The notes: a model not told the origin generated them from the sequence alone. Positions 1 through 24,735 are shown, counted from the stretch's first letter. The stretch is 64,000 nt of DNA from an uncultured Acidobacteriota bacterium (GCA_963817635.1 CAWFPR010000013.1:156740-220739); one strand, 5' to 3'. Numbers and translations are program-made.

Positions 1-1811
1 AACCGGTACCAGGGCGCCCACAACCTGAAGTGGGGCGGCGAGATTCGGACCTACTACGGCGAGGCCGCCCGCTTCGAGCCCATCAACCTGGTGTTCAACT
101 CCGCTCTGACCGCGAACAGCTCCGACAGTCCGGACGTGACGAACACGGGCAACCAGTGGGCTACGTTCATGCTCGGCGCGCTCGACGCCAACACGTCCGC
201 GCGGCTCGTGCCGCTCCAGCAGCCGGACCGATGGGGTATGCCGCCTATTTCCAGGACGATCTCCACCTCAACGATCGCCTGACTCTGAACCTGGGGTTGC
301 GCTGGGAATACGAGCTCGGCCTGACTGATCCGCAGAATCGCCTGTCGCAGCGCCTCGATCTCACGCAGGCCATCCCGGAGATGCAGACGACGCCGCCGGC
401 GATCCCGTCGCAGGCGCAGGACCTGATGAGCGCGAAGGGCTACAGCTACAGCTTCAACGGCGCGTGGATCTTCGCGACCGCGTCGAGTCCACACGCCTGG
501 CACAGCACGCCCTGGAATTTCCTGCCGCGTGCCGGCGTCAACTACCGGATGGGAGACGACGCCGTCGTCCGGTTCGCATATGCACGCTACCTGATACCAC
601 CACCAACGTGCGGGACACGCTGGGTGATTTCGTCAACCAGTATCCGGATTCGCGCAGACCACGACGACGCTCGGGCTGGCGAGCGGAGTGCCGCAGCAAA
701 CGCTGGCCTACGGTTCCCGACGAACAATCCGGTCATCGAGCCGTACGGACAGGCCTACGGCGGTACACGGGCCTCGGCGGCGCGGTCAGCCTGGACCAGG
801 ACCGAGCTCCGGCTCGACGAACGACCGGTTCAACGTGTCGTATCAGAGGCAGTTGCTCTGGGGCACCATCGTCGAGCTCAACTACTTCGTCAACCTGGGC
901 TCGCGCGGCTGGACAACATCAACCTGAACCTGATGGACCCGGTGTTCAAGTACAAGGACAAGACGCTCATCAACACCCAGGTCACCAATCCGTTCTACAA
1001 CTACCTGACGGTGGACAAGTTCCCCGTATCGCCGCGGAGCAACAAGACCGTGGCGCTGAGCGCTCTGCTCGTGCCGTACCTGCAGTACGGGACTATTACG
1101 CAGACGAACACCAACGGCAAGCTGGAGCGGACACACACCTTCGAGGTGCGCGCGCAGCGGCCCTTCACGCACGGACTGAGCTTCGTCGTCGGGTACGCGT
1201 GGAACCGCGATTGCGTGCAGGAGATGCTCGACGACGTCGCGCAGTACAAGGTCCTGACCACGAATGGGAAGGACGGGTGGGAGTGGCGTCCGACCGATAC
1301 GCCGGTGCACCGTCTGACGGCCGCGTTGAGCTGGGAGCTGCCAATCGGCCGCGATCCGGTGCTGCTGTCCGGATGCCGATGGCCCTTGATATGTTCCTCG
1401 GCGGGTGGTAGTACGCGCTGATGGCTCGGGCATATTCCGGATGTCTCCTGCTGTTCCTCAACAGCGACGTGGTGGATGGCAATCCGAAGCTCTCGAACCC
1501 GACGAACGACAAGCGGTGCGACAGAAGCTTGTTCGACACGGCCGATTCGTTCACGCTGTGGAGCAACCGCCGTGGTTCAAGGGGTTGAACGGTCCGGGCG
1601 TGTTCGTGACCGAGATGACCCTCACGAAACGTGTGAACGTGATGTCGAGATACGACTCGAAGCGCGCATCGAGGCACAGAACGCGCTCAAGAACATCATC
1701 TGGGATAAGCTGGAACTGGCGCTGTCGAATGCGAACTTCGGCAAGGTGACCGGAAAGCGTGCCGCCTGGAGCGGATGTGAAATCCAGGTTGGCTTGTGTT
1801 TCCTTTCGTAG
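1..1811 (+). pseudogene. TonB-dependent receptor, C-terminal beta-barrel part (5' end outside window), reading frame broken many times
   Basis: Barrel motifs are readable only by hopping frames. Frame 1: NRYQGAHNLKWGGEIRTYYG. Frame 3: YFQDDLHLNDRLTLNLGLRWEYE and NINLNLMDPVFKYKDK..FVVGYAWNRD. Frame 1: NDRFNVSYQRQLLWGTIVELNYF. Tail [20 protein letters not shown], with stop at 1809-1811. Confidence 0.75.
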
Positions 1812-1815
1812 GCCG

Positions 1816-3381
1816 ATGCACCGAAGGCAGTTCCTCGATGGAGCCTGCGTATGCGCCGGCTCCCTCCTTCTGCGTGCTGGGCGACCGGGAGCCTCGGCCT
1901 GGTGCCCGCGCAGGCCGTTGCCTCCACGACCGCGGGACGGATCGCGGCCTCGTGGAGGCCAACGGCGTCCTCGCGTTCAAGGGCGTGCCTGATGGGGCCG
2001 ACACCGCGCCGCGGCGATTTCTGCCGCCGCTCCCGCCGGCACCCTGGGCCGGGGTCGTGACGCGGCGGAGTTGCGGGCGATTGCGCCGCAGCCGGGCTTT
2101 CGCGGCTGGCTGATGAGCGAGGATCGCCTGCACCTGAACGTCTGGACTCCGGCGCTTCGCGACGGTGCAAGCGTCGAGGCCCGTGTGGTCGCATCCGGCG
2201 TGTTCTCGAGCGGCACGAGCAACGAACCGTCGGCCGACGGCGCCCGCCTGAGCCGGCGCGGCGATGCGGTCGTCGTGACGGCGAATGACTGGATCGACGC
2301 CTTTGGCTATCTGTATCTCGCGAGTTCGGCGGACTGGAATTCGCCGATTCGGGCAACGCCGGGATGCTCGACCTGGTTCTGGCGCTCCGCTGGGTGCGGG
2401 ACAACGTCGCTGAGTTCGGCGGCGATCCGGGTCTCGTCACGATTTCCGGGCAGTTGGGGCGGGGGCGCAAGTGCGCGACACTGATGGCGATGCCCTCGGC
2501 GCGCGGCCTCTTCCACCGCGTGTTCACGATGAGCGGACAGCAGCTGACCGCGAGCCGGCAGACGACGGCCGTCGCAACGCGTCCGACTGCTGGCGGCGCT
2601 GCACATCACCCGGACCGTGTACGCGATCTGACGCAGGTGTCCATGTATGACCTGATAGCGGTCAGCCGGGCCTCGAAACACCTCGGCCCCGTGAAGGACG
2701 GCTGTTCGCTGCCGCGCGATCCCTTCGATCCCGATGCGCCGCCGCAGTCGGCCGACATCCCGATGATCCTCGGCAACACCGACGACGAAACTCGGAACCT
2801 GATCGGCCGCGGCGACCTTCGACCTTCGAGCTGACGTGGGAGACGCTGCGGCCGAAACTCGAGGCGACAGCGCCGTTCATGGGTGACCTCGATCGCGGCG
2901 GGGTCATCGCCGAGCACGCCGGCTCGACCCGCACTACACCCCTGCCGACGTCTACTTCGCGTCCACCACCGCGTCGCGTTCGTGGCGCGGGCATGTCATC
3001 GAGGCGGAACGCCGCGCGGTGCAGACCGCCGCAGCCTCGCACACGTGGGCGAACCAGTTCGACTGGCCGACTCCGGTGGACGGCGGGAAGTGGAGGGCGC
3101 ATCACGGCCTCGACGTCCCGAGGCGTTCGACAGCGTCGCGGCGCCCGAGATGGCGGAACCGGCCCTGAACCCCAGCGCGTCGCCGATCAGATGAGCGAAT
3201 CGCTGCTCGCGTTTGCGCGAAGCGGGAACTCGAACACACGAGGCATTCCCGCCTGGCTCATGTACGGGCTCGAGCGACGGCAAACGATGGTCTTCAACCT
3301 GCGCTCTGCGGTGGTCGACGACCCGCGCGGCGATGAGCGGCGCATGTTCGAAAAGGTGCCCGATGTACAGCCCGGAACTAA
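1816..3381 (+). pseudogene. type-B carboxylesterase with Tat-like signal, frame-broken
   Basis: ATG 1816, [19 protein letters not shown]. Motifs [59 protein letters not shown] and C-terminal MVFNLRSAVVDDPRGDERRMFEKVP lie in different frames. The nucleophile-elbow region reads GQLGRGRK in the local frame. The 3' end is approximate. Confidence 0.7.
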
Positions 3382-3411
3382 TCGGACCGCGGCCATCGAA
3401 TTCGCCTTTGC

Positions 3412-5006
3412 GGCGTGCCTCTTGCCTGCGGCGTCAGGTCTGCTGTCTGGGCCCAGTCGGCGACCGCAGCGTCGGCCTCGCGCGAGCAGGTGCTCGAGAC
3501 GATGAAGCGGGCGACGACGTTCATGGTCGACAAGGCGAGCACGAACGGCGGCTACGTCTGGTCGGAGCTGCCCGATTTCTCTCGGCGATGGGGTGAACTC
3601 GAAGCGCGCGACACCATGATCTGGATTGAGCCGCCAGGCACGCTGGTCATGGGCGATGCTGGACCTCGATGCGGACCACGCGACGGGGATGAGTACTACG
3701 ACGAGGCGGCCGAGAAGGTCGCCGGCGCGCCATCTGGGCCCAGCTGCCATCGGGCGGCTGGAACTACGTGGCGGACTTCGCGGTCGATCGATTGCTCCGC
3801 GACTGGTACGACACGGTCGGCCGCAAGCGTGGCGCCTCGAGGAGTTCCAGCACTACTGGGGCAACGCGACGTTCGACGACGCGGGCAGAGCCGAGTCTGC
3901 CAAGTTCCTGCTGCGCCTGAACGTCGAGAAGCGCGACGCGAAATACGAGCCGGCCCTCGATCGTGCCATCCGGTCCGTCATCGAGAGCGAGGACCCGATC
4001 GGGAGCTGGCCGCAGCGCTACCCGCTCCAGGACCGAGTTCTCGCACGACGGCAGCCCGGATCACACGTTGAACATCATGTTCAACGACGACGTGGCGGGG
4101 CAGAACATCGAATTCTTGACGATGTGCGACCAGGCGCTGGGGATCCGCGATTGCTCGATCCACTGCGTCGCGGGATGAACGCGTTCCTGGTCATGCAGCA
4201 GGGTGCGCCGCAACCCGGATGGGCGCTTCAGAACACGCCCGACTTCAAGCCTGCGGGTGCGCGCACCTACGAGCCGAAGGCGATGGTGACCGACACCACC
4301 GCGACCAATATCGAGCTGCTGCTGCGTTTCTATCGCCTGACCGGCGAAACGAAGTTCCTCGCGCGGATTCCCGAAGCGATTGCCTGGCTCGAGAGCCTGG
4401 CGCTTCCTCCGGGTGTCGCGCCGCAGGGGCGCACGCACCCGACGTTCATCGAGGTCGGCACGAACAAGGCGCTCTACGTGCACCGCGAAGGCTCGAACAT
4501 CTTCAACGGACGATACTATGTGAACGCCGACCCGAAGGGCACCATCGGGCACTACAGCTCCTTCCGGCGTATCGATACCGCGAGGCTGCGGAAGCTCTAC
4601 GAGGAGGCGAAGGCCCTGTCGCCCGCGCAGGCGGCCGCTGATTCGCCCTTGACGCCCGGTGCGGGCATCGTGCCACTGCCCCGTTTCTACGTCGAGGACG
4701 CGGGCCGCGCACCCTCAGTCGAGACCCTCGTGGGATCGCTGAACGCGCTGGGCTACTGGCTCGTGCCGCTCGGGACGAACAGCCATTGGTACAGCGGCGA
4801 TGGCCTGACAACCATTCCGGACGGCGATGACTCGCAGACGATGGTGGGCGACGCGTCGGACACGTCGCTTATCCTGACAACCGGATCGTGGCATTTCGAC
4901 GGAGACGTACATCCGCAACATGGGTGTGCTGATACGTGTGCTCGATAGCGACCCTGGTCAGGCCGATGAGGCGGACGACCCGGGTGCCGGCCCTCCTGCA
5001 GGGTGA
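3412..5006 (+). pseudogene. pectate lyase, PelA/Pel-15E (PL10)-like, frame-broken
   Basis: Motifs spread over three frames: MKRATTFMVDKASTNGGYVW, FQHYWGNATFDDAGRAESAKFLLRL, DPIGSWPQRYPL, TLNIMFNDDVAGQNIEFL, APQPGWALQNTPDFKPAGARTYEP. Tail ISTETYIRNMGVLIRVLD, ending at TGA 5004-5006. The start is approximate. Confidence 0.65.
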
Positions 5007-5010
5007 GTGA

Positions 5011-5669
5011 ATGTTATGATGATGCGATTAGGCGCGCTCGCGGCGGGGCTGATCTCGCTGGCCGCGGCCATTGTCTGACCGGCGATCGACGGGCGTGCCC
5101 AGACTGTCGAGCTGATTGTCTGGAAAATGGACAATCTCTCCTCGATCGGGCGACATCCCGTCATGGCTGTTGGCATGCTGTGAGTGGTGGAGACGCCGAA
5201 TGGACGGGCTATCGAATCAAAGGCGCAACAGACGGACTGTCGTGGAGGTGAAACCGATCGGGGGCTTGTGCAGTTCATGCTGGAGGTCGTGTTCGAACGG
5301 GTGGCTGACGGCAACGAGGAGCAGCGATTCGTTCACGTCGAGGAGTCCGGAACGGGTAATCGGGCGCTCGTGGAGCTCCGTCGCCTGCCTGACGCCACGT
5401 GGGCGCTCGACACCTTCCTGCGGCACGGCGATGCGTCGCTCACGCTGCTCGATCGCGACCGCACGACCCCCACCGCGAGCTGGCACGTCGCGACGCTGGT
5501 GTTCGACGGACGGACGATGTCGCACGACGTGGACGGCGTGCGCGAGGCTGGAGGTGATGTGGCGTTCCAGCCGCTCGGCGAGGGGCGGACGTCCGTCGGC
5601 GTGCGGCAGAAGTGTTTCTCGCGGTTCAAAGGGAGGAATCGCGAAGTGCGCGTGACCCTGCCGTGGTGA
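5011..5669 (+). pseudogene. LamG/concanavalin-like domain protein with signal peptide, frame-broken
   Basis: Signal-like MMMRLGALAAGLISLAAAIV is followed by a premature stop. It continues in other frames as VELIVWKMDNLSS.. and FMLEVVFERVADGNEEQRFVHVEESGTGNRALVELR..WHVATLVFDGRTMSHDVDGV..GRTSVGVR (LamG-like pattern). Confidence 0.5.
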
Positions 5670-6463
5670 TTACCCTCTGGCCGGAAGGAGTTCCCGGCGC
5701 GACGCGAGACGGCGGCGAGGAGCGCCTGGAAGACGGCCGCGTCTACAACGTGCAGCGACCGATGCTGACCTGGCTGCCGCCGCCGCCCGGCACGGCGAGC
5801 GGAATGGCTGTGATTGTCTGTCCGGGCGGCGGATATGCCCGGCTCGTGATCGCCAACGAGGCCGACGGCGCGGCGCGGATCCGGCGCCCTCGGCATTTCG
5901 ACCTTCGCGCTCAAGGACCGGCTCGCGGAGATCGGGTACCCGGCCCGCTGCAGGACGTGCTCCGGGCGGTCCGGCTGCTGCGATCGCGCGAGGGGGAGTC
6001 GGGATCCGGGCCGATCGCATCGGGGTCTTCGGCGCGTCGGCGGGTGGGCACGTGGCCGCGATGGCCGCGACGCTGTTCGACTCGGAGGATGGCTGCAGGC
6101 GCGGTATGAGCTGTTGCACGCGATTGTGCGCTGCTCTATAGGTATCACGATGCAGGCGTTGCCACGACGGCTCGCGGACGGTTGCTCGGCAGCACGGCGA
6201 ACGACTCGTGAGCGGCTGTGCTAGAACGCGCGTCACTCGTGCGACGCGCCTGTTTTCTCGTGCATACCTGGAGGACTTGAGCGTTCGGTAGAGAACAGCT
6301 CCAGTTCTTACAGGCGCTGCGCGCGGCGGGCGTGTGCGCTGAACTCCACGTCTACGAGATAGGGCACACGGCTTAGGGATGTCGCCTGGTCTCGGGCTGA
6401 CGTCGGAGTGGCGCAGCGCTCGCGGAATGGCTGCGGTCGCACGGCTGGATTTCCACCCCATGA
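5669..6463 (+). pseudogene. alpha/beta-hydrolase esterase (acetyl-esterase/lipase-like), frame-broken
   Basis: ITLWPEGVPGA, AVIVCPGGGYARL, PLQDVLRAVRLLRS. In another frame: RIGVFGASAGGHVAAMAATLFD (GxSxG elbow). Tail EWLRSHGWISTP, then TGA 6461-6463. Confidence 0.6.
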
Positions 6464-6471
6464 CTGCGCAC

Positions 6472-8099
6472 ATGAAACGATTCATCACCGTTGCCGCCGC
6501 CGTCGTGCTGGCCATCTTCATGGCCGAGGCATCCTTCGCCCAGGGGCGCGGCTTCGAAGGACAGCGCAAAGCGGATTTCGGCAACGGCACGTATCTCAAT
6601 CCCATCTTCGCAGGCGACCATCCCGACCCGTCGATCCTGCAGTGACGGCGCCGACTACTACATGACGTTCTCCTCGTTCGACGCCTATCCGGGACTCGTC
6701 ATCTGGCACTGCGCGACCTGGTGAACTGGGAGCCGGTCGGCCCGGCGCTCTTCAGGAACGTCGGATCGGCTGGGCGCCGGATCGCGGAGCATGGCAAGCG
6801 GTACCATCTATTTTCGGCATCTCTCCGAACCGCTTGAACTACGTCATCTGGGCGGACGACATTCGCGGCCCCTGGAGCGAGCCGATCGATCTCGAGATGG
6901 GCAGATCGATCCCGGCCACGCCGTCGGTCCGGACGGCACGCGTTATCTCTTCCTGAGCGGCGGGCAGCTCGTTCAGCTCGCCGCCGACGGCCTGTCGGTG
7001 CTGAGTGCTAGAAGAAGGCGCGCAGCGGCTGGTTATACCCGAGGACTGGATTGTGGAAGGGTTCGCGAAGGAGGGCCCGAAGATCCGAAGCGCGGCGACT
7101 ACTACTACATGGTCCTGGCTGAAGGAGGCACCGCCGGCCCGCCGACCGGACACATGGTCGTCGTGGTCCGGTCGAAGACCATCGAGGGACCGAGGGAGAA
7201 CTCGCTGCATCAACCCGGTCGTGCGAACGGTTTCGCGCGGCGAGTACTGGTGGTCCAAGGGGTACGGTACGCCGTTGAGGCACCGGACGGCACATGGTTC
7301 CTCGTGTACCGCGCCTACGAGAACGGCTTCTACAATCTCGGCCGGCAGACGCTGCTCGAGCCTGTCGAATGGACCGCCGACGGCTGGTTCAGGGCCACCG
7401 GCGTCGATGTGTCGGCGCTGATCGAAAGCCGGATGGGGCGGCCGTGACGACGGATTTCCGTATAGGACCACTTCTCGACGAACCGGATGGGTGTGCAGTG
7501 GAGCTTCTACAGGGGCAGCGGGGAAGATACCGGGCGCTATCGCTACGAAAAGAACGGTTCGCGCTGAAGGAAAGGGCACGACGCCCGCCGACAGTTCGCC
7601 GTTGTGGTTCGTGACGGGTGATCACGCGTACGAGATCGAGGTGGAAATCGACGCCGATCCGGGGGCGTCGGCCGGACTGCTCCTGTTCTACAGCCGCAAG
7701 CTCTATGCGGGGCTCGGGTTGAGCGAATGAATCTGATCAGGCATCAGTACGGGACCGAGCGGCCCGGCGCGAAGCCTCCCGATTTCGGCCGGCACGTCTT
7801 CCTGCGCCTGCGCAACGATCGCAACATCCTCACCATGTTCTACAGCCCTGACGGGCGGATCTGGCGGAGGTTCGATCGCGGCATCGACGTGTCCGGCTAC
7901 CACCACAACGTGGCGTGATTTCCTGAGCCTCCGTCCGGCCTTGTATGCTTCCGGCATCGGGGAGGTACGCTTCCGGAACTTCCGGTACCGCGCGCTGGCT
8001 GTCGAGCCCGCCCCGGCGTCGCGGTCAAGCGGATCCCTGCTGCAGCACGATTGTGACATCGCGGTCGAGAAACCAGGAACCCACGAGGCGGTGGCATGA
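6472..8099 (+). pseudogene. glycoside hydrolase family 43 (beta-xylosidase/arabinofuranosidase-like), frame-broken
   Basis: ATG 6472, signal MKRFITVAAAVVLAIFMAEASFAQ. NPIFAGDHPDPSIL, GADYYMTFSSFDAYPGLVIWH, DLVNWEPVGPAL, IDPGHAVGPDGTRYLFLSGG, KRGDYYYMVLAEGGTAGPPTGHMVVV, PDGTWFLVY.AYENGFYNLGRQTLLEPVEWTADGWF. C-terminal sandwich AYEIEVEIDADPGASAGLLLFYS..VFLRLRNDRNILTMFYSPDG. All three frames are needed repeatedly. The 3' end is approximate (8000-8099). Confidence 0.75.
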
Positions 8100-8378
8100 C
8101 GACCGGCTTTTCGTTCTTCAAGGATGTGGCGGACCTGCCGTTCATCTTCCGGAAGCGCGCGCTGCACCCGGGCTCCGGCATCGGCCCTCACGAGCAGAAG
8201 GAAGACGAGATCGACGACGTCCTGAGCGGCAAGGGGGAGCTGACGCTCGACGGCAGGTGGATCGAGATGGGGCTGGTCGACGCGATCCGGACGTGCCCCG
8301 GGAGCACGACAGTCTGCGTCAGGTCGGCCCGACGACCTGGTGATCATGATTGTGTATCCCAACGCCGGCGCATCGCGA
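8096..8378 (+). pseudogene. small cupin-domain protein (KdgF-like position in the locus), frame-broken
   Basis: MTTGFSFFKDVADLPF..HPGSGIGPHEQKEDEIDDVLSGKGELTLDGRWIEMG. It continues in other frames as EHDSLRQVGP and DDLVIMIVYPN. Confidence 0.5.
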
Positions 8379-8389
8379 TGAGGACCGAC

Positions 8390-9074
8390 ATGGCAACAGT
8401 GAACGGCACCGCAGGACGCGAGCAGCGCGCAGGCACCGTTGCGGCCATCGAGGCGGCGGGTGTGGTTGCGGTCATCCGTCTGAAGGAGCCCGCGTCGCTC
8501 CGTGCGGTCGTGGACGCGCTCGCCGAGGGCGGCGTGCGCGCGCTCGAAGTGACGATGACGGTGCCGGGCGCCGTCGAGCTGATTCGGGCGCTCGCGCCGA
8601 CGCTGCCGACCGGGCTTCCTGCTCGGCGCCGGCACGGTCATCGACGCCGAGACCGCGTGCGCGTCATCGACGCCGGCGCGCAGTTCATCGTCAGCCCTGT
8701 GTTCCGGATGCAGGTGCTCGCCGCGGCTCACGCGCGGACGTCCGCGGCCATGCCGGGCTGCTTCACGCCGACGGAGATCCTCGAGGCCTGGGAGGCGGGC
8801 GCCGACATCGTGAAAGTCTTTCCGGCGACGGCGCTCGGCCCGGGGTTCTTCAAGGACATGCACGGGCCGCTGCCGCAGGTGAAGCTCATGCCGACCGGCG
8901 GCGTCACGCTCGACAACGTCGGCGACTGGATTCGAGCCGGCGCCGTCGCGGTCGGCGTCGGCACGGCGCTGCTCGACGCGAAGGCGATCGCGGCGGGCGA
9001 GTCACGGTGCTGCGAGCGAACGCGGAGCGGATGGTCGCGAAATGTCCGGCGCGGCCCGGGAGAAGGCGTGATGA
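8390..9074 (+). pseudogene. eda: 2-dehydro-3-deoxyphosphogluconate (KDPG) aldolase, frame-broken
   Basis: VVAVIRLKEPASLRAVVDALAEGGVRALEVTMTVPGAVELIRAL; GFLLGAGTVIDAETA only in a shifted frame; IDAGAQFIVSP; MPGCFTPTEILEAWEAGADIVKVFPA; KLMPTGGV. The tail shifts again before TGATGA at 9069-9074. Confidence 0.75.
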
Positions 9075-10105
9075 CCAAGGTCGTGACGTTCGGCGAGATC
9101 ATGCTGCGGCTCAGCCCGCCCGGGTTCGAGCGCTTCTTCCAGTCGCCCGTGCTGTCGCGCGACGTTCGGCGGGGGCGAGGCCAACGTGGCGGTCAGTCTC
9201 GCGCAGTTCGGCCTCGAGAGTAGCTACGTCACGCGCGCTGCCGGCCCATGCGATCGGCGAGGCCGCCGTCGGGGCGCTGCGCGCCGAAGGCGTGCGCACG
9301 GACTCGCATCGTCCGCGGCGGCGACCGGGTCGGCATCTACTTCGCCGAGGCCGGCGCCAGCCAGCGCGCATCCGACGGTGATCTACGACCGCGCGCACTC
9401 CGCGATCAGCGAGCATGGCGCCCGACGCCGTGGACTGGGCGGGCGTGTTCGACGGCGCCGACTGGTTTCATGTGACCGGCATCACGCCGGCGCTCGGCGC
9501 CAAGGCGCGGCGGCGACACGCCGCGCCATCGCGGCCGCGAAGCGCGCCGGGGTGCGGGTCAGCGTCGATCTGAACTTCCGCAAGAAAGCTGTGGTCTGAG
9601 GCGCAGGCGCAGGACGTGATGCGCCCGCTGATGCAGCACGTCGACGTGGTGATCGCCAACGAGGAGGATATGCAGTCGGTGCTGGGCGTGGCCGTCCACG
9701 GAACCGACGTGACCACCGGGGCACTGGACCTCGCGGGCTTCAGGACGGCGGCTGGGCAGGTGTCGAAGGACTTCGGCCCGCAGACGGTCGCGATCACGCT
9801 GCGGGAGAGCCTGTCGGCCAGCGACAACGGCTGGAGTGCGGTGCTGTGGGACGCCGATGCCGGCACGATTCCATCGCAGCCAGCGCTACGAGGTCCGTCT
9901 GGTCGATCGGATCGGCGGCGGCGACAGCTTCGCCGCCGGGCTGATCTACGGGCTGGTGACCGGTCGCACGCCCGAAGCGGCGCTGCGGTTCGCGGTGGCG
10001 GCCAGCGCGTTGAAGCAGACGATCCCGGGCGACTTCAACCGGGTGACTGTCGAGGAAGTCGACCGGCTTGCCGAAGGCGACGCCTCGGGACGCGTCCAGC
10101 GCTGA
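9071..10105 (+). pseudogene. kdgK: 2-dehydro-3-deoxygluconokinase (PfkB family), frame-broken
   Basis: MTKVVTFGEIMLRLSPPGFERFFQSP; GGGEANVAVSLAQFGLES; RGGDRVGIYFAEAGASQRAS; WFHVTGITPAL; VSVDLNFRKK; VDVVIANEEDMQSVLG; [18 protein letters not shown]. Several frame switches are needed. Confidence 0.8.
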
Positions 10106-10145
10106 AGACCGCTTGTTGGGCCGTGTCGGGCTGGTTGATCCTTCG

Positions 10146-10956
10146 ATGGATGAGGCCTGCATGGACGACAGAGTCTCGGACGAGATGTTCGACCTGTCCG
10201 GCCGCGTCGCGGTCGTCGTCGGCGGGACGAGCGGCATCGGCCGGGCGCTCGCGCTCGGACTGGCCGACGCCGGGCGCCGACGTCGTGGCGACGGGGCGCC
10301 GGCAGGAGCTCGTCGCCGAGGTCGCGCGGCGCGATCGAGCGGCGAGGACCGGCGGACGGCTGCGAATGGCCGTCTGATGTCGGCGACCCGGCGTCGCTCG
10401 AGCGGCTGCGCGATGCGTGCCTGGCGCAGCTCGGCCGGCGTCGACATCCTGGTCTGCGCCGCCGGCCTGACCAAGCGGGTGCCCGACGCTCGAGATGGCC
10501 GAGCCGACTGGACGCGGATCATCGAGACGAACCTGACCGGGCGTCTGCGGCGCCTGCCGGGTGTTCGGGCGCCGATGGTGAAGCGCGGCAGCTGGCCGCA
10601 TCATCACGATCGCCTCGCTGTCGTCGTTCGTCGGGCTGTTCGAGGTGGCGGCCTACACGGCGAGCAAGGCCGGCGTCGCCGGCCTGACGCGGGCGCTGGC
10701 CGTCGAGTGGGCGCTCGCACGGCGTCAACGGTCAACGCGATCGCCCCGGGCGTGTTCAGGACCGACCTCAACGCGCGCCCTGCTCGACTCGCCGCGCGGC
10801 CAGGAGTTCCTCATGCGCACGCCGATGGGCCGGTTCGGCAGGCTCGAGGAGCTGGTCGGCGCGGCCGTGTTTCTCGCCTCGGACGCCGCGTCGTTCGTCA
10901 CCGGCCACCTGCTCGCCGTCGACGGCGGCTTCCTCGCGAGCGGGGTCAACCAGTGA
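10146..10956 (+). pseudogene. short-chain dehydrogenase/reductase (KduD/gluconate-5-dehydrogenase-like), frame-broken
   Basis: MFDLSGRVAVVVGGTSGIGRALALGLADAG; ADVVATGRRQELVAEVA (other frame); VDILVCAAGL; AAYTASKAGVAGLTRALAVEWA (YxxxK); NAIAPGVFRTDLN; FLASDAASFVTGHLLAVDGGFLASGVNQ, stop at 10954-10956. Confidence 0.75.
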
Positions 10957-12469
10957 AAGCCGTGCCCTGGTCATCAGCGACCGCGACAACGTCGCGACCG
11001 CGCTCGAGCCGCTCGAGGCGGGCCGCCGCGGTCGAGGGATCGCGGGAGCGACCGTCGAGGCGCGTCGAGCCGATTCCGCCCGGCCACAAGATGGCGCTCG
11101 AGCCGATTGCCGCCGGCGCAGCCGGTCGTGAAGTACGGCAGCCCGATCGGCCTCGCCACCTGCGACATCGCGCCGGCGACGCACGTGCACACGCACAACG
11201 TGGCGAGCGGCCGCGGCCGCGGCGATCTCGCCGTCCGGCCGACGCCGCCTGCGATCCCAGGCGACCCGGACGCGGCGCGCGAACGATGAGCGACCCGGCC
11301 CGGCTTCCTCGGCTATCGGCGCCCGACGGGCGCGTCGGCACCCGCAACCACGTCCTGGTCGTGCCGACCGTCATCTGCTCGGCGGTCGTGGCGAGCGGAT
11401 GCCGCGGCTGTCGACCGCCGCTCTGTGCCGCGCTGCCGCACCTGGCCGGCTGCGGGCAGCTCGGGCCGGACATGCGCCTGACCCACGAGACGCTGGCCGC
11501 CTACTGCGGCCACCCGAACGTCGGCGCGGTCCTGGTCGTGGCGCTCGGGCTGCGAGCAGGTGGTCGCGCAGAAGCTGGCCGAAGCCGCGGCGCAGCACGG
11601 CAAGCCGGCCGCGATCACTCGCGATCCAGGCCGAGGGCGGCACCGTCGCGGACGACGGCGGCCGGGATCGAGATCGCGCGATCGATGGCGGCCGGGCTCG
11701 ACGGCGCAGCAGCGGGCATGGTGCGACGTCTCGGAGCTCGTCCTGTCGCTCAAGTGCGGCGGGTCGGACTACACCTCGGGGCTCGGCGTCGAATCCGGCC
11801 CTCGGCCGGGTCGCCGATCGCCTCGTCGATCTCGGCGGCACCGCCGTGCTCGGCGAGATCGCCGAGATCATGGGCGCCGAGCACCTGCTGGCGGCGCGCG
11901 CCACGCGTCCGGACACGTCGGACCGCCTGCTCCACGTCATCAACCCGCGTCGAGCTGGAGGCCCGCGGCCTCGGCCTCGACATCCGCGGCACCCAGCCGT
12001 CCCCGGGCAACATCCGCGGCGGTCTGACGACGATCGAGGAGAAGTCGCTCGGCGCCACGCACAAGGGCGGCGAGCACGCCCGCTCGACGACGTCGTGCGG
12101 CTACGCCGCGCCGATCGCGGCGAAGGGCCTGACCGTGATGGACACACCCGGCCTCGACGTCGAGTCGGTCACCGGCATGGTCGGTGGCGGCGCGCAGGTC
12201 GTCGTGTTCACGACGGGCCTCGGCACACCGACGGGCAATCCCATCGCGCCGGTCATCAAGATGACCGGCAACGCCCGGACGGCGAGGCAGATGGCCGACA
12301 ACATCGACCTCGACGTCAGCGGCATCATCGAACGAACACGGAGACGCTCGACGCAGGCCGCCGATCGCCTCTTCGCGTCGATGCTCGCCGTGGCGTCCGG
12401 CAAGCCGACCGCGGCCGAACGCTCGGCCACCGCGAGTTCGCCATCCACCGGCGCAACCCGACGATCTGA
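10953..12469 (+). pseudogene. uxaA: UxaA-family altronate/galactarate dehydratase, frame-broken
   Basis: SAF-domain start LVISDRDNVATALEPLEAG..PPGHKMALEPIAAG..VVKYGSPIGLATCDIAPATHVHTHNV. Then DGRVGTRNHVLVVPTVICS, PHLAGCGQLGPDMRLTHETLAAYCGHPNVGAVLVVALG, SLKCGGSDYTSGL, GLTVMDTPGLDVESVTGMVGGGAQVVVFTTGLGTPTGNPIAPVIKMTGN. Tail GHREFAIHRRNPTI, stop at 12467-12469. Confidence 0.75.
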
Positions 12470-12515
12470 GAGCGCTGGGGAGCGCCCGGCTGGAGCCGCC
12501 CGATGCCGCACGTTG

Positions 12516-12809
12516 TGGGTGGCGGTCGCGCTCATCAGTCTCGCGGCCGCGGCCCACCAGGGCTGGTCGGCGAACCTGTTTACCACGGCATCGGACATGT
12601 TCCCGCGCCATGCCGTCGGCTCGATCGTGGGACTGGGCGGCACGGCGGGCGCGGTGGGCGGGATGCTCATCGCGAAGCTCACCGGCTACCTGCTCGACAG
12701 CACCGGCAGCTACGTCCCGGTGTTCCTCATTGCCGGCTCCGCCTACCTGACGGCCCTGACGATCTTCCATCTGGCCGCACCGCGCCTCGAGACCGTCCGG
12801 CTGCAGTAG
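12516..12809 (+). pseudogene. C-terminal remnant (about 97 codons) of an MFS hexuronate-transporter-like gene
   Basis: WVAVALISLAAAAHQGWSANLFTTASDMFPRHAVGSIVGLGGTAGAVGGMLIAKLTGYLLDSTGSYVPVFLIAGSAYLTALTIFHLAAP resembles the last helices of ExuT-type MFS proteins. No N-terminal two-thirds is present between uxaA (end 12469) and this segment. Confidence 0.55.
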
Positions 12810-13014
12810 GGCGGACACGTCCCTGAGGCGCCCGGTCACCATAAGGGCACTTCCTGCGGGCCGGGCGCCGCTGGCGCGCTGCGTGAGCGCTCGGGCTCGA
12901 GCATCCTGTTCGTCGAACTGAGCACGGTCACGTCGCCGTCTCCGCCGGAGCAAGGGCGGCGCCAGCGTGGAAGCTCAACGGGGAACCGTCTCGCCGCGTG
13001 ACGGTTTTCCGAAA

Positions 13015-13043
13015 TTGACAACCTCGACCAGCCAGCGAACAAT
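13015..13043 (+). promoter_or_regulatory. sigma-70-type promoter candidate (TTGACA-17-AACAAT) immediately upstream of ATG 13049
   Basis: TTGACA at 13015-13020, 17-nt spacer, AACAAT at 13038-13043. The ATG lies 6 nt downstream, so the transcript would be leaderless or nearly so. Confidence 0.4.
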
Positions 13044-13048
13044 GGCAC

Positions 13049-14020
13049 ATGATCTCAACGGTCCTGCTTTCCCTCGTCCTGGCGCAGACTCCGGCCGCGG
13101 CCCAGGCTCCCAGCCAGCCGCCAGCTTCGCCGCATATCCAGCCGGCCGCGTCGGGCGCGTACATTCCGCAGCGCGTCTTCGACACGCGCCGCAAGGCGTT
13201 CATCGATTTCGAGATGATGCTGGCGGACCTCGCGCGCGCCGACGTCGTCCTGGTTGGCGAGCAGCACGACGATCCGAACACGCACCGGCTGGAGTCGGCA
13301 ATTCTCCAGGGGCTCATGCGCCGCGGAGTACCGATCACCGTCTCGCTCGAGATGTTCGAGCGCGATGTCCAGGGCGTGCTGGATCGCTATCTCGCCGGAG
13401 CGATATCAGAGGAGGACTTCCTGAACGCCACGCGGCCGTGGCCGCGCTACGCCACCGACTATCGCCCGCTCATCGAGATGGCCAGAGGGCACGGCTGGCG
13501 GGTGATCGCGGCTAATGTGCCGCGTCGGCTCGCCGCCGACCTGTCCAAGGCAGGGCAGGCGGCGTACGAAATGGCCAAGGCCGAGGATCGCCCCTGGATG
13601 GCGAGTGAACTCCAGTGCCCGCAGGACGACTACTTCAAGCGCTTCTCCGAGCAGATGGGCGGCCATCCGATGGCCGGCGCGGCCCCGCCCAAAGACAGCG
13701 CGGCGGCCGCCAAGGCCGCCGAAGACCAGCGCGCGCTCGTCGAGCGGTTCTACCTGGCGCAGTGCCTGAAGGACGAGACCATGGCCGAGTCGATCGCGCG
13801 GGCGTTCGCGACCCAGGAGGGACGTCCCGGCACGATCGTCCACTATGACGGCGCGTTCCACAGCGACTACGGCCAGGGAACGGCCGAACGCGTCCGGCGG
13901 CGCCTTCCGGGCCGGCGCGTCGCAATCGTCTCGATGATCCCGACCGACGACCTCGACACGCTCGCGCCGGACGACGACGACCTCCAGGTCGCGGACTACC
14001 TGATCTACACGATCAAGTGA
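13049..14020 (+). CDS. ChaN-like haem-binding/iron-regulated lipoprotein family (Tiki/erythromycin-esterase-like fold)
   Basis: Intact 323-aa ORF. Hydrophobic N-terminus, then ADVVLVGEQHDDPNTHRLE, ITVSLEMFERDVQ, RVIAANVPRR, IVHYDGAFHSDYGQGT, typical of the ChaN/cofactor-haem-binding family. Confidence 0.7.
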   Translation: MISTVLLSLVLAQTPAAAQAPSQPPASPHIQPAASGAYIPQRVFDTRRKAFIDFEMMLADLARADVVLVGEQHDDPNTHRLESAILQGLMRRGVPITVSLEMFERDVQGVLDRYLAGAISEEDFLNATRPWPRYATDYRPLIEMARGHGWRVIAANVPRRLAADLSKAGQAAYEMAKAEDRPWMASELQCPQDDYFKRFSEQMGGHPMAGAAPPKDSAAAAKAAEDQRALVERFYLAQCLKDETMAESIARAFATQEGRPGTIVHYDGAFHSDYGQGTAERVRRRLPGRRVAIVSMIPTDDLDTLAPDDDDLQVADYLIYTIK

Positions 14021-14051
14021 TCGCCGTCGCCAGGCCCGCGACCCCGAGGCC

Positions 14052-15458
14052 TCAGCGCAACCGATCGGGCATGTCGGCAATCACGTACGTCATCACCGCG
14101 ATGGCGGCCGATGCCCGTGACATGTCCATCGGATCGATCTTGTCGACGGTGTCGGCCGGCGTGTGGTGGATCAGGAAGTAGTTGCCGTCCACGTCCAGCG
14201 ACATCGCCGGCATCTTCCCGGCTTCGACACTCGGGCCGATGTCGGCGCCGTCCCCGGCGGCGCTGATGTGGTCCGCCTGGATCCCGCGCAGGAGCGTGGC
14301 GATTTCCTTCACGATCGCGCGCGCGGCGTCGCTGCCGGTGAAGCCGAATCCGGTCGGACGGAACACGCCGGAATCCGATTCCATCATCATGACGTGATTG
14401 GCCAGCTCCTGGGCGTGCCGGTCGCGGTAGGCCTGGCCGCCGCGGCCGCCGTTTTCCTCGTTGACCCAGAGCACGACCCGCACCGTGCGCCTCGGCCGCA
14501 GGTTCAGCTGCTTCATCAGCCGCAGCGCTTCCCACGTCACCACGCATCCGCCGCCGTCGTCGGTCGATCCGGTGCCGACGTCCCAGGAGTCGAGGTGTCC
14601 TCCGATCACCACGACTTCGTCCGGCGTTTCGCGCCCGCGGATTTCACCGACGACGTTGAACGAGTCGGCGTCGGGGAGGAACCGGGCCTCCATCTTGAGC
14701 CGCAGGCGCGTCGGCGTGCCGCGATCCTGCATGCGCTGAAGGCGATCGGCGTCCTCGGTCGTCACGGCGGCAGCCGGAATCTGTGGGGCGCCATCGGTGT
14801 AGCGGAGCGCCCCCGTGTGCGGCAGCCTCAGTCCCGGCGGGCCGACTGACCTGACCAGGGCCGCGACCGCGCCAAGCGCCGCGGCGCGCGACGGTCCGAC
14901 GCCGCGATAGACGACGGTCTCGCCGTAGTTCGTGAACGGCACGTTGAAGAGCACGATCTTGCCCTTCACGCGGTCGCCCGCTGCCTCCAGCTCCGGGAAG
15001 CTGCCGACGACGAGCACCTCGCCCTCGACGCCCGCAGCCGGCGTGCCGACGCTGTTGCCCAGGCCAAGCATCACCAGGGTGTGATGTCGCGGCGAGATGA
15101 TCTCGAGGCTCTCCTGTCCCCGTACCCAGTGCGGCACCTTCGCGGGCTCGGTGTGGACGTTTTCGAGGCCGTCCTTCTTCATTTCCTGGACGGCCCACTG
15201 GATGGTGTCCTCGAGGGCCTGCGATCCGCTCAGACGGGGCCCGAACGTGTCGCCGATCAGGGCCAGACGCTGCCAGGCGAAATCGGTGGCCAGGGCGGCA
15301 CCGATCAGGCGCCCCGCCGGTTCGCGGTACGGCTCGAGGAGGGCGGACGGCGCCTTGGCGGCGGGTTGCGGTGATTGTCCGGCCGGCGCGGCGGAGGATA
15401 CGACGAGAACGCCAACGGCGAGGGCTCCCAGTGCCCTCGTACGAACTGATGTATGCAT
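14052..15458 (-). CDS. M28-family aminopeptidase with PA domain, secreted
   Basis: Intact 468-aa ORF with signal peptide MHTSVRTRALGALAVGVLVVSSA. Motifs FNVVGEIRGRETPDEVVVIGGHLDSWDVGTGSTDDGGG, VLWVNEENGGRG, LIHHTPADTVDKID. Confidence 0.85.
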   Translation of the reverse strand: MHTSVRTRALGALAVGVLVVSSAAPAGQSPQPAAKAPSALLEPYREPAGRLIGAALATDFAWQRLALIGDTFGPRLSGSQALEDTIQWAVQEMKKDGLENVHTEPAKVPHWVRGQESLEIISPRHHTLVMLGLGNSVGTPAAGVEGEVLVVGSFPELEAAGDRVKGKIVLFNVPFTNYGETVVYRGVGPSRAAALGAVAALVRSVGPPGLRLPHTGALRYTDGAPQIPAAAVTTEDADRLQRMQDRGTPTRLRLKMEARFLPDADSFNVVGEIRGRETPDEVVVIGGHLDSWDVGTGSTDDGGGCVVTWEALRLMKQLNLRPRRTVRVVLWVNEENGGRGGQAYRDRHAQELANHVMMMESDSGVFRPTGFGFTGSDAARAIVKEIATLLRGIQADHISAAGDGADIGPSVEAGKMPAMSLDVDGNYFLIHHTPADTVDKIDPMDMSRASAAIAVMTYVIADMPDRLR

Positions 15459-15492
15459 CCGCGTATTCTATGCCAGGGACGGCACGCCGCCG

Positions 15493-16557
15493 TCAGAGCG
15501 CGACGCGATGGCGTCCGCTGTGCAGGTAGTTCATCGTCTGGACGGTGAGCATGATCGTGAAATCGAGCTTCGTGTGTTCCTCGGTGCCCTTGAGGCGGAG
15601 GTTCAGCTCGGTGGCGCGGGCGATCATGTTCTCCAGGACCTGGTCGATCGTGTACTGATATTCGCCGGTCCAGGCGGCGATCATCCGGCGCACTTCCTTG
15701 CGGACGCGGGCGATGAAGCGCGCCGCCTTCATGTTGCCGGCGTGCTCCGGGCGGTCGGAGAAGAGCCGTCGCAGGTCGCGATCGTAGAAGTGCGGGTGCT
15801 CGACGCCGTAGTGGCGGCGCTTGCGCTCGTAGTGGGCGCGCAGCGTCTTGCGGATGTTCTGGAGCGGCTCGACGCGGCGGCGCGTCCGCACGATCATCGG
15901 CTTGCCGGCGAGCTCGCGCATCAGCGCGTCCATGTATTCCAGCTTCTTCAGCGCCGGCCAGTCGGCGTAGCGCGTGCGCCAGTCGGCGTCCGGCGTGAGC
16001 CACAGCGCGAAGGTCTCGGCGAAGTCCTCGTCGGGGTGGCTCTGCGCATACCAGCTGTCGAGGTGCAGGACGAAGCTCTTGCTGTAGGGTTTCGGCGTGT
16101 AGTACTCCGGGTACTGCATGTAGGACGGGCCGAAGATCTGCTGGCGGCGCCGCCGCTGGCGCAGCTTGTAGGCGTTGTCGATCGCGTGCCCGGCTTCGTG
16201 GCGCAGGATCTTCATGCACCACTCGGGCGTGCCGCCTTCGACTTCGAGCATCTGCGAGCGCTCGAGTTTCTCGAGCCGCGGATGGGCGAGGAAGAACGGA
16301 ATGGCCACGCCGGGCACTGCGTCGGGTGAGAACCACTCGGCTGACAGCCAGAAATGCGGCTGAAACTGCTGCAGGCCGCGGCCGTCCAGGTCGCGCTGAA
16401 GGTCCGCGATGCGAGACTCCAGCACGCTGCCTTCGATGGTCAGGCCCAGGTCGCACATGCGCAGGTCGAGCAGCTTCTCGTCAGGCCAGGAGGGCCACTC
16501 GAGTGGCGGCGGCGCCTCGTCCGGGACGGGCAGTGGGGCGGCTGGGTCGGTGGACAT
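15493..16557 (-). CDS. putative zinc-binding metallopeptidase (HExxH)
   Basis: Intact 354-aa ORF with ILRHEAGHAIDNAY (HExxH) and DEDFAETFALWL, as in the putative zinc-binding metallopeptidase family. Confidence 0.65.
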   Translation of the reverse strand: MSTDPAAPLPVPDEAPPPLEWPSWPDEKLLDLRMCDLGLTIEGSVLESRIADLQRDLDGRGLQQFQPHFWLSAEWFSPDAVPGVAIPFFLAHPRLEKLERSQMLEVEGGTPEWCMKILRHEAGHAIDNAYKLRQRRRRQQIFGPSYMQYPEYYTPKPYSKSFVLHLDSWYAQSHPDEDFAETFALWLTPDADWRTRYADWPALKKLEYMDALMRELAGKPMIVRTRRRVEPLQNIRKTLRAHYERKRRHYGVEHPHFYDRDLRRLFSDRPEHAGNMKAARFIARVRKEVRRMIAAWTGEYQYTIDQVLENMIARATELNLRLKGTEEHTKLDFTIMLTVQTMNYLHSGRHRVAL

Positions 16558-16695
16558 CTCGTTTCGGGCCTCTCAGTCTAGCCGAATCGCGCTGGTTGCC
16601 TGTTTTGTGGTATATCCGTCTGTCCCCAGACGCCCGCACAGGTCGATCGTCGCCGTTTGCGGCGGGCCGCCAGCCCGTTCGATATAGGAGCCTCT

Positions 16696-18906: not shown

Positions 18907-18909
18907 GAA

Positions 18910-19082
18910 GGCTCAAGGCTCAGGGCTCAGGGGGCCGGGCTCAGGCGGCCGGGCTCAGGGGCAGGGGAAAAGGTTTCGGGGTTCGAGCGGCCGCGTGGCG
19001 GTACAATGGTGCGCCGGGCGTCCGTGAGCCGTGAATCCTGAGCCCTGAACCTTGAGCCCTAAGCCCTCTCAGTCCCTGAGCC
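18910..19082. repeat. heptamer-repeat palindromic intergenic element (GGCTCAR type), copy A
   Basis: Left arm: ggctcaaggctcagggctcagggggccgggctcaggcggccgggctcagggg. Right arm: cctgagccctgaaccttgagccctaagccctctcagtccctgagcc (its approximate reverse complement). The roughly 70-nt core contains TACAAT (19001-19006). Confidence 0.8.
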
Positions 19083-19932
19083 TTGTCCATCCGCCTCCTC
19101 GCCATCGACCTCGACGGGACGCTCCTCGACAGCCAGGGGCAGGTGCCGGAGGCGAACCGGGTGGCCATCGGGCGCGCCGTCGATGCGGGGGTGGAAATCG
19201 TGCTCGCCACGGGCCGGCGCTACGATTTCGCCCGTCCGGTCTTCGAGGCCCTGCCGCAGCCGCTCACGCTCATCCTCAGCAACGGAGCCGTCGTCAAGAC
19301 CCGCGACGGGGAGACGCTGATGCTGCACCTGCTGCCGCGGGCGGTGGCGCGCGCCGTGCTGATGCAGGTGCCCGAGCACCGTGACAGCGCCGCGGTCATC
19401 TTCGATCGTCCGCGCGAAGGGCAGGTGGTCTACCAGGCGATCGACTGGGAGCACTCCCGTCACCATCGTTTCTTCTCGGCGAACCGGCCGTACCTCGCCG
19501 AAGTGGCCCCGCTCGAAGACTGTCTCACCGAGGATCCGGTGCAGGTGATGTTCTCCGGCGGATGTGTCGAGATGCGGGAGCTGTACGGGCGGCTGAAGCC
19601 CGTGACCGCCGACGTCGCGCCGTTCTTCGAGGTCGCGCTCACCGAGGTACGAGGACCGTGATTTCTCTCTCGTGGACGTCGTCCGCGCCGGCTGCTCGAA
19701 AGGATCGGCGCTGGCGGAATGGGCGGCGCGGCGCTGTGTGCCGCCCGCGGCGGTGATGGCGATCGGCGACAATCTCAACGACCTTCCGATGCTGGAGTTC
19801 GCCGGAACGCCGGTCGTGATGGGCAACGCGTCCGGCGAGCTGAAGACACGCGGCTGGGCGACGACTTCCACCAATGACGACGCCGGAGTCGCGCAGGCGA
19901 TCGAGACGTTCGTCCTCGAAAGGGCGTCATAA
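19083..19932 (+). CDS. Cof-type HAD-IIB phosphatase (one frame switch near 19650)
   Basis: TTG start. IRLLAIDLDGTLLDS, VEIVLATGRRY. After the switch, frame 1 gives VDVVRAGCSKGSALAEWAARR..VMAIGDNLNDLPMLEFAGTPVVMGNA. Confidence 0.8.
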
Positions 19933-19942
19933 CATCGTGGCT

Positions 19943-21865
<1,923 letters not shown>

Positions 21866-21872
21866 AGCTTCC

Positions 21873-22043
21873 CGATTGCAGACTGCAGATTGCAGATTGC
21901 AGATTGCGGGGATTGAAGAGTGAAGATTGCCGATTGGGGCTTTGAGCCGCACCTTCCAACCGCAGTAAGATAGGCCTTGGTCCAATCGGCAATCGCCACT
22001 CGACAATCCGTCAATCTTCAGTCTGCAATCTTCAGTCTGCAGT
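21873..22043. repeat. heptamer-repeat palindromic intergenic element (GCAGATT type) with embedded promoter candidate
   Basis: Left arm: cgattgcagactgcagattgcagattgcagattgcggggattgaagagtgaagattgccgattgg. Right arm: ccaatcggcaatcgccactcgacaatccgtcaatcttcagtctgcaatcttcagtctgcag. The core has TTGAGC (21942-21947), an 18-nt spacer and TAAGAT (21966-21971). Confidence 0.8.
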
Positions 22044-22048
22044 GCGTT

Positions 22049-24684: not shown

Positions 24685-24735
24685 GCTCAAGGCTCAAGGC
24701 TCAGGGGGCAAGGCTCAAGCCCCTGTGAGCCCCAG
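24684..24735. repeat. GGCTCAR heptamer element, short copy between convergent genes (terminator-like)
   Basis: ggctcaaggctcaaggctcagggggcaaggctcaagcccctgtgagcccc. CTCAGGGG pairs with CCCCTGTGAG. It overlaps the last codons of the minus-strand gene. Confidence 0.7.

Follow-up and report, generated by a model that had tools for sequence, protein, structure and literature searches.

Ashwell-type clusters for the utilization of hexuronates and pectin bring together UxaA, KdgK and Eda with pectate lyase and esterases. Loci that decay in the course of genome reduction accumulate nonsense mutations, indels of varied size, larger deletions and insertion sequences, with a mutation spectrum that is nearly symmetric between the strands and with lesions that are partly shared by related strains. 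Genes can also be fragmented for technical reasons: Nanopore bins with less than ~40-fold coverage need extra polishing, and indels fragment the gene calls (PMC9262707). Here we analyze a stretch of 64,000 nucleotides (nt) from an uncultured Acidobacteriota bacterium (CAWFPR010000013.1:156740-220739; hereinafter, the window) that starts with a putative pectin and hexuronate utilization locus in which the reading frame is broken in gene after gene. A previous sequence-only reading had offered two explanations, a decaying catabolic island and a locally poor assembly, and had leaned toward very recent decay or consensus errors of the indel type. The poor-assembly explanation is upheld by the existence of an intact counterpart of the locus in another assembly and by the spectrum of the lesions, whereas decay of the island is not supported. 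Very probably, window 1-12,470 is a long-read (probably, Nanopore-only) assembly at near raw-read quality, and the genes in it are not pseudogenes.

Frame breaks along the window

We aligned intact homologs to the window using a frameshift-aware protein-to-DNA alignment procedure of our own and counted the frame corrections and in-frame stops. Across window 1-12,466, this alignment required 98 frameshifts (7.9 per kb) and contained 6 in-frame stops, whereas the control segment downstream (12,519-23,716) required only 2 frameshifts, so that the density is 44-fold higher in the island (p=6e-25). This is the comparison of indels per kb that the sequence-only reading had proposed, and it bears out the description given there: the locus is frame-broken gene by gene, the downstream neighbors are nearly clean, and the 1.8-kb fragment of a TonB-dependent receptor at the start of the window, for which at least eight switches had been traced, contains 10 frameshifts in 1-1,805. 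The first of the two control frameshifts lies in a HAD hydrolase gene, at ~19,647; the second, at the C-terminus of an intact TonB-dependent receptor, probably reflects a faulty reference, given that the open reading frame (ORF) of the window closes with RIQF and a stop codon.

This 749-amino acid (aa) receptor ends at 18,890-18,906, and its homolog in a related contig, L084 (6,388-8,760), which is called as a protein of 790 aa, can be aligned beyond the C-terminus of the window protein only after a change of frame. In TonB-dependent receptors, the terminal residue usually is aromatic, as is the Phe here, and the discrepancy at the 3'-end more likely reflects a defect of L084 or read-through.

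Given that the window contains ~67% G+C, the coding frame can also be read from the G+C content of third codon positions (GC3). Within window 1-12,000, there are 40 changes of the high-GC3 phase, and a single phase is maintained per gene over 13,049-24,700. Under a codon-usage model trained on clean genes, the Viterbi path includes 62 frame jumps in 1-12,000, compared with 30 in the other 52 kb; most of the latter are gene boundaries, where the old frame meets a stop codon within 18 nt. The phase plot also raised the suspicion of another bad patch, at 25-31 kb, which turned out to consist of gene boundaries and a few isolated frameshifts. Ordinary tblastn was dropped for the receptor fragment, where the frame switches are hidden by a wrong-frame ORF (30-1,421) that stays open in the G+C-rich DNA.

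The broken stretch ends at ~12,470, with the last frame-breaking indel at 12,422, rather than at 12,809 as previously proposed; the ORF at 12,519-12,806, which had been included, is an undamaged remnant. The sequence-only reading was correct in that a uniform error rate could not produce the contrast between the locus and its neighbors. This contrast is, however, no argument for biology because error rates vary along long-read metagenome contigs, as illustrated by the counterpart contig described below, which has a bad patch of its own elsewhere.

The lesions are small. When the island is aligned to this counterpart, 135 of the 153 gap runs consist of 1 nt, and none is longer than 5 nt; neither larger lesions nor inserted elements or insertion sequences were seen in this alignment, and despite the damage, all ten genes of the island can be aligned end to end to intact homologs. 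These features bear on the possibility that the locus underwent genuine, very recent pseudogenization by ordinary mutation after selection had been lost. Such decay would account for the damage to every gene of the locus next to clean neighbors, yet it is highly improbable, in part because only 6 stops accompany the 98 frameshifts, no deletion exceeds 5 nt, and insertion sequences are lacking.

An intact counterpart and two zones of unlike defects

Used as a query, the stitched UxaA sequence identified a 126.5-kb contig (ENA ERZ25039533 contig_26209; hereinafter, L081) with which window 1,353-22,393 is collinear in a single 21.2-kb alignment. Downstream of the receptor, L081 encodes the nine proteins of the island in uninterrupted, full-length ORFs: COesterase (527 aa), Pec_lyase (537 aa), LamG-esterase (497 aa), GH43-cupin (647 aa), Eda (226 aa), PfkB kinase (342 aa), SDR (261 aa), and the small (SAF; 106 aa) and large (391 aa) subunits of UxaA. 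The Pfam scores are higher for these ORFs than for the stitched translations of the window (270 vs 131 bits for COesterase, 305 vs 182 for GH43 and 79 vs 35 for Pec_lyase). None of the frameshifts of the island is shared by L081, the only common lesion being the truncation of an exuT-like gene. Moreover, the damage is reciprocal: the fragmented genes of L081 fall where both the window and L084 are intact, so that the patches occupy different, adjacent blocks. The presence of intact island genes in an independent assembly, the breaks of which lie elsewhere, argues for an artefact in the window, as do the lesions themselves, which are 1-nt indels with a strand-specific and base-specific spectrum. 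It also argues against decay, because a strain that is nearly identical to the window in this segment retains all the genes intact.

The dense patch of L081 spans 14,186-21,176 (approximately, window 15,500-22,400) and contains an Mx peptidase of 123 aa, a Plug domain of 250 aa, a TonB barrel of 100 aa and pieces of an ABC transporter of 229 and 203 aa. It has 123 extra and 35 missing bases, an insertion-type signature similar to that of zone B of the window (see below). In another related contig, L083, fragmented ABC transporter and TonB-dependent receptor genes are present at 1,759-8,762; the comparison of L083 with L084 reveals scattered single indels, ~1 per 0.5-1 kb, and no dense patch.

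The broken stretch of the window falls into two parts. Zone A (1-8,400), which appears to be under-polished and may extend upstream of the window, is characterized by single-base deletions and one-strand substitutions, and zone B (8,480-12,476) by single-base insertions on top of real divergence from L081. Over the aligned portion for which zone A was counted (1,353-8,700), the window lacks 101 bases of L081 (64 C, 23 T, 7 A and 7 G) and has 6 extra ones; substitutions occur at 277 pyrimidine sites of the plus strand, including 70 T sites, and at 49 purine sites. Thus, ~9.5% of the pyrimidine sites but only ~1.3% of the purine sites are changed, evenly over 7 kb (p=1e-52). In window 1-1,352, which has no counterpart in L081, all 7 of the 7 frameshifts are of the missing-base kind.

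Altogether, ~5.9% of the zone A positions are affected, and the changes are over-dispersed (variance/mean of 3.2 per 100 nt). There is a quiet stretch at ~4,150-4,750 and an error burst at 6,097-6,420, in the esterase part of the LamG-esterase gene; 38 bases, nearly all of them C, are missing in 6,001-6,500, and this gene (5,016-6,460), which encompasses the burst, contains 4 in-frame stops. Only 37% of the zone A substitutions are in the third codon position, compared with 77% in the clean flank (p=5e-10), and the changes at purine sites similarly lack the third-position bias. Because the substitutions are spread evenly over the codon positions, the two sequences appear to be essentially identical underneath, and the differences between them are almost entirely noise. 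Fixed mutations in double-stranded DNA cannot yield a 7-fold one-strand excess over 7 kb that hits both pyrimidines, and this 7:1 strand asymmetry of the spectrum is a further point against decay.

On the minus strand of zone A, the substitutions are led by G>A, which affects 4.95% of G, and A>G, which affects 2.9% of A, a pattern that resembles the spectrum of Nanopore reads. A read-orientation bias of nanopore sequencing that recurs across species, flow cells and basecalling models has been described, with G>A the strongest class in the Oxford Nanopore (ONT) models (bioRxiv 10.64898/2026.01.14.699587).

One-strand changes of this kind could also stem from a real mutational shower, in which one strand of zone A (1-8,400) was damaged or edited and the changes were then fixed, be it because natural transformation brought in damaged environmental DNA, or because exposed single-stranded DNA was depurinated or attacked by a deaminase. 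Such an event, which would have knocked out the entire catabolic locus in a single step, fits the restriction of the changes to a single strand for at least 7 kb, the dominance of C>T, C>G and C>A on the plus strand, the ~1.4-fold stronger effect on G than on A of the minus strand, and the near identity of the sequence to L081 otherwise. We nevertheless give it almost no credence: both C and T are affected, in broad contexts, which no single deaminase would do; the substitutions are accompanied by ~1.3% single-base deletions; the adjacent zone B has a different, insertion-type defect; there are other frameshift errors on the contig; and the signature of zone A matches a known sequencing bias. 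Three specific causes were considered and rejected. A cytosine deaminase (kataegis-like) is at odds with the 70 substitutions and 23 deletions at T sites, the broad context and the 101 single-base deletions; homopolymer slippage, as the main cause, with the 59 deletions adjoining an identical base where 41 are expected and with only 3% of the bases in runs of 4 or more; and, for this patch, methylation-motif errors with the broad contexts and the local rather than contig-wide effect.

Zone B, counted over 8,701-12,500, has 53 extra bases relative to L081 (25 C, 15 G, 7 A and 6 T) and lacks 17. With a further relative, L082, as the outgroup, 39 of the extra bases are specific to the window, and the asymmetry of the inserted bases on the plus strand is weak (20 C vs 10 G). 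Substitutions, at ~9% of the sites, are strand-symmetric and are split about equally between the two lineages; 68% are in the third codon position, no different from the clean flank. The zone B substitutions, then, are ordinary divergence under purifying selection, and the insertions alone are abnormal. In zone C (12,500-16,900), there are almost no coding indels, and the substitutions (~4% of the sites) are symmetric, with 77% in the third codon position; this is the picture of real divergence between the genomes of the window and L081.

The switch from deletion-only zone A to insertion-dominated zone B is sharp (Fisher p=3e-23). Fixed mutations cannot yield two adjoining blocks, one made up purely of 1-nt deletions and the next of 1-nt insertions, and accordingly this succession speaks against decay, as does the lack of a non-synonymous excess in zone B despite more than 50 insertions. 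Real decay would carry nonsense and non-synonymous changes in proportion. Taken together, the zone A substitutions, which bear no imprint of selection and are 7:1 strand-asymmetric, and the zone B substitutions, which bear the normal purifying imprint, argue for an artefact.

The window and L081 diverge in a mosaic fashion, with true differences of ~0% in zone A, ~9% in zone B, 0.2% (a single substitution) in 12,476-12,925 and ~4% beyond. This pattern suggests either that strains recently exchanged a portion of the island or that the assembly followed a chimeric read path. Within the same class of artefacts, the broken stretch might therefore have originated from the collapse of two co-occurring strains, or from a chimeric path between them, with reads drawn to a sibling contig during polishing or mixed haplotypes merged with spurious indels at variable sites. 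This variant is possible but unlikely. It is compatible with the mosaic of divergence in successive blocks, with the bad patches being reciprocal between two homologous contigs, with the numerous C<->G differences that accompany the insertions both in zone B and in the bad zone of L081, and with the accessory status of the locus, which is absent at the matching position in L083 and L084. However, it predicts neither the 7:1 strand asymmetry nor the deletion-only profile of zone A, and the window and L081 may come from different samples.

Source of the contig and probable origin of the frame breaks

The relatives of the clean neighbor genes all belong to Acidobacteriota, order Vicinamibacterales, and are known only from metagenome-assembled genomes (MAGs). 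Two of the window products, the M28 peptidase P0121 and the protein P0271, are encoded on one 280,344-bp contig that is present in both NCBI and ENA. The closest contigs carry names of the ena:ERZ250395xx series, and because one of these, ERZ25039547:contig_18710 (405,444 bp), is the contig CAVZGT010000008.1 of the MAG MFD05567.bin.2.150, the series can be assigned to the Microflora Danica long-read project. This project, from the same group that reported the coverage limit for Nanopore bins, assembled Nanopore R10.4.1 reads with metaFlye 2.9.2 (nano-hq mode) and polished the result in a single Medaka round, without recourse to short reads (PMC12313526).

Apart from the island, isolated within-gene frameshifts are present in the genes for the HAD hydrolase (19,647), an ABC_tran protein (26,918), a PadR regulator (29,979) and a histidine kinase (59,872, 60,332 and 60,441), so that the contig has a background of consensus errors. 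The first ORF of the split HAD hydrolase covers positions 1-118 of the 255 positions of the Pfam profile, the ABC_tran domain is divided over two frames, PadR is cut after profile position 57 of 75, and the histidine kinase is split three times, into sensor, HAMP/HisKA and HATPase portions. Further candidate frameshifts are located at 25,414, 26,169, 29,247, 31,281, 53,336 and 58,184.

The most likely scenario starts from the locus being an accessory segment, carried by only part of the population and hence sequenced at a lower depth. The path of the assembler over the locus would have rested on very few reads, and a single Medaka round could not have voted the errors out. Across 1-8,400, one or a few minus-strand reads would have left deletions and purine-directed miscalls; across 8,480-12,476, a different read or strain would have contributed +1 insertions; and from ~12,480 on, normal coverage of both strands would have been restored, resulting in clean genes.

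Several observations weigh against this explanation. The low depth, the one-strand support and the two-read structure are inferred and not seen in reads; that the contig of the window itself comes from the Microflora Danica project and the Nanopore platform is probable and not proven; and the reference, L081, is an error-prone assembly in its own right. The spectrum of zone A is not fully explained by an ordinary read either: all the purine classes of the minus strand are raised, including transversions and deletions, beyond G>A and A>G and with G affected ~1.4 times as often as A; the ~6% error is 10-20 times the typical published R10 substitution rates; and the enrichment of deletions next to an identical base (59 vs 41 expected) is mild, unlike the homopolymer-centered residual errors of Nanopore sequencing. 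Zone A could stem from a very poor read, from a pile-up restricted to a single strand or from damage to the template strand.

If the assembly is indeed at fault, the frame breaks have no biological significance, and the finding is an ordinary one, with nothing new as biology. It has practical consequences, because a public contig holds 12.5 kb of sequence of near raw-read quality, and the protein records derived from it include wrong-frame translations. For example, P0271 (396 aa) is the exact translation of the window ORF 231-1,421 (plus strand), about one quarter of which is in the wrong frame and stays open because the DNA is G+C-rich; the deposited annotation of the contig thus includes a partly fictitious protein sequence. 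Such patches mislead the counting of pseudogenes, the prediction of metabolism and the search for gene decay in long-read MAGs. An artefact can be told from decay without access to the reads if one examines whether the differences from a close relative are strand-asymmetric, how the substitutions are distributed over codon positions and how large the indels are.

Gene content of the locus and its relation to known systems

The gene identities proposed in the sequence-only reading hold by Pfam searches both with the stitched translations of the window and with the intact ORFs of L081. All the genes are on the plus strand. The locus starts with the C-terminal part of the TonB-dependent receptor (1-1,805; OMP_b-brl_4, PF25183, on the stitched translation), which is cut by the window start; its 10 frameshifts are all of the missing-base kind, and with one stop, the corrected protein is 68% identical to the homolog P0241. 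Next come a carboxylesterase (COesterase; 1,816-3,379; aligned to residues 1-527 of the 527-aa L081 protein, 92% identity, 12 frameshifts) and a pectate lyase (Pec_lyase, PF09492; 3,363-4,955; residues 1-533 of 537, 92% identity, 10 frameshifts), which we take to be a member of PL10. They are followed by a fusion of LamG (Laminin_G_3) with an alpha/beta-hydrolase esterase (BD-FAE; 5,016-6,460; residues 1-497 of 497, 84% identity, 13 frameshifts, 4 stops) and by a protein combining GH43, GH43_C2 and a C-terminal cupin (6,460-8,378; residues 1-647 of 647, 92% identity, 18 frameshifts). LamG and esterase, as well as GH43 and cupin, had previously been listed as separate genes; in L081, each pair is a single ORF.

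The remaining genes encode the KDPG aldolase Eda (8,390-9,068; PF01081; 226 of 226 aa, 93% identity, 5 frameshifts), a KdgK-like sugar kinase of the PfkB family (9,071-10,102; PF00294; 342 of 342 aa, 91% identity, 8 frameshifts), a short-chain dehydrogenase (SDR; 10,161-10,953; PF13561 and PF00106; 261 of 261 aa, 84% identity, 7 frameshifts, 1 stop), and the two subunits of altronate dehydratase, the small one with the SAF domain (10,961-11,286; PF08666; 5 frameshifts relative to the 106-aa L081 protein) and the large one (GD_AH; 11,293-12,466; 10 frameshifts relative to the 391-aa L081 protein). Altronate dehydratase is encoded by two overlapping genes, with products of ~106 and 391 aa (window 10,961-12,466; L081 9,684-11,176). 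This arrangement is a normal feature of the clade rather than the result of a frameshift, because the large subunit consists of 389-400 aa in more than 100 homologs.

By the Pfam assignments in both the window and L081, the locus includes pectin-active enzymes (Pec_lyase, COesterase, BD-FAE and Glyco_hydro_43) and covers the lower route to pyruvate and glyceraldehyde-3-phosphate, with UxaA (GD_AH and SAF), KdgK (PfkB) and Eda (KDPG aldolase). Pfam searches of window 1-12,809 and of the matching part of L081 found no members of the UxaC and UxaB families; the SDR might be the reductase, and the missing UxaC, UxaB and transporter genes may lie upstream of the window. After correction, judging by the gene content, this plausibly is a pectin and hexuronate utilization locus, and most likely, this acidobacterium of the order Vicinamibacterales possesses a working version of it.

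The right edge of the island retains two remnants. The undamaged ORF at 12,519-12,806 (plus strand) is what is left of a gene for an ExuT-like MFS transporter, namely, 96 codons at the 3'-end, with the first ~360 codons gone; its product shares 76% identity with residues 360-455 of a 458-aa MFS protein in L082 and matches the L081 ORF in 95 of the 96 residues with no frameshift. Because the same remnant is present in L081, the truncation of exuT is real and common to both; this tail is the only genuine gene remnant in the broken locus. The second remnant, at 12,833-12,938, is ~105 bp of the 3'-end of tonB, with 75-78% identity to tonB of L083 and L084. In these two contigs, an exbB-exbD-exbD-tonB array (12,570-14,775) is located beside ChaN in place of the pectin locus, and given that the window keeps the tail of tonB, the pectin locus can be considered an accessory segment, the right edge of which bears the scar of a rearrangement. 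Among 80 loci of Acidobacteriota MAGs compared by the synteny around ChaN, none carries the island next to this gene. The accessory status of the locus and the earlier gene loss that is evident from the true exuT remnant would both be congruent with the decay of the locus. The exuT and tonB remnants are old rearrangement scars at the island edge.

Once the frames are corrected, the locus resembles the Ashwell-type clusters in the combination of UxaA, the PfkB kinase, Eda, Pec_lyase and esterases, here beside a TonB-dependent receptor; it differs from them in that no UxaC or UxaB homolog is present in the visible part and in that only the last 96 codons are left of the gene for the ExuT-like transporter. 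Similarly to decaying, pseudogene-rich loci, it shows several frame breaks per gene over a whole functional locus flanked by clean neighbors, but the mix of lesion types and sizes, the strand symmetry and the frameshifts shared with a relative that mark such loci are not seen here. Compared with the published Nanopore consensus errors, which are sparse and homopolymer-centered, the ~8 frameshifts per kb over 12.5 kb are dense and only mildly linked to base runs, and zone A contains, in addition, ~4% substitutions. The order of the minus-strand classes in zone A, with G>A first and A>G second, agrees with the nanopore bias of Liu et al. (bioRxiv 10.64898/2026.01.14.699587), whereas the rates, at 3-5% in zone A, exceed the 0.1-0.4% per base published for R10, and purine transversions and deletions are raised as well. 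The pattern also resembles the coverage-dependent indel errors of Nanopore-only assemblies, which are at their worst in metagenome bins of low coverage (Sereika et al. 2022, PMC9262707): here as there, 1-nt indels split conserved ORFs and are absent from better-supported assemblies of the sequence.

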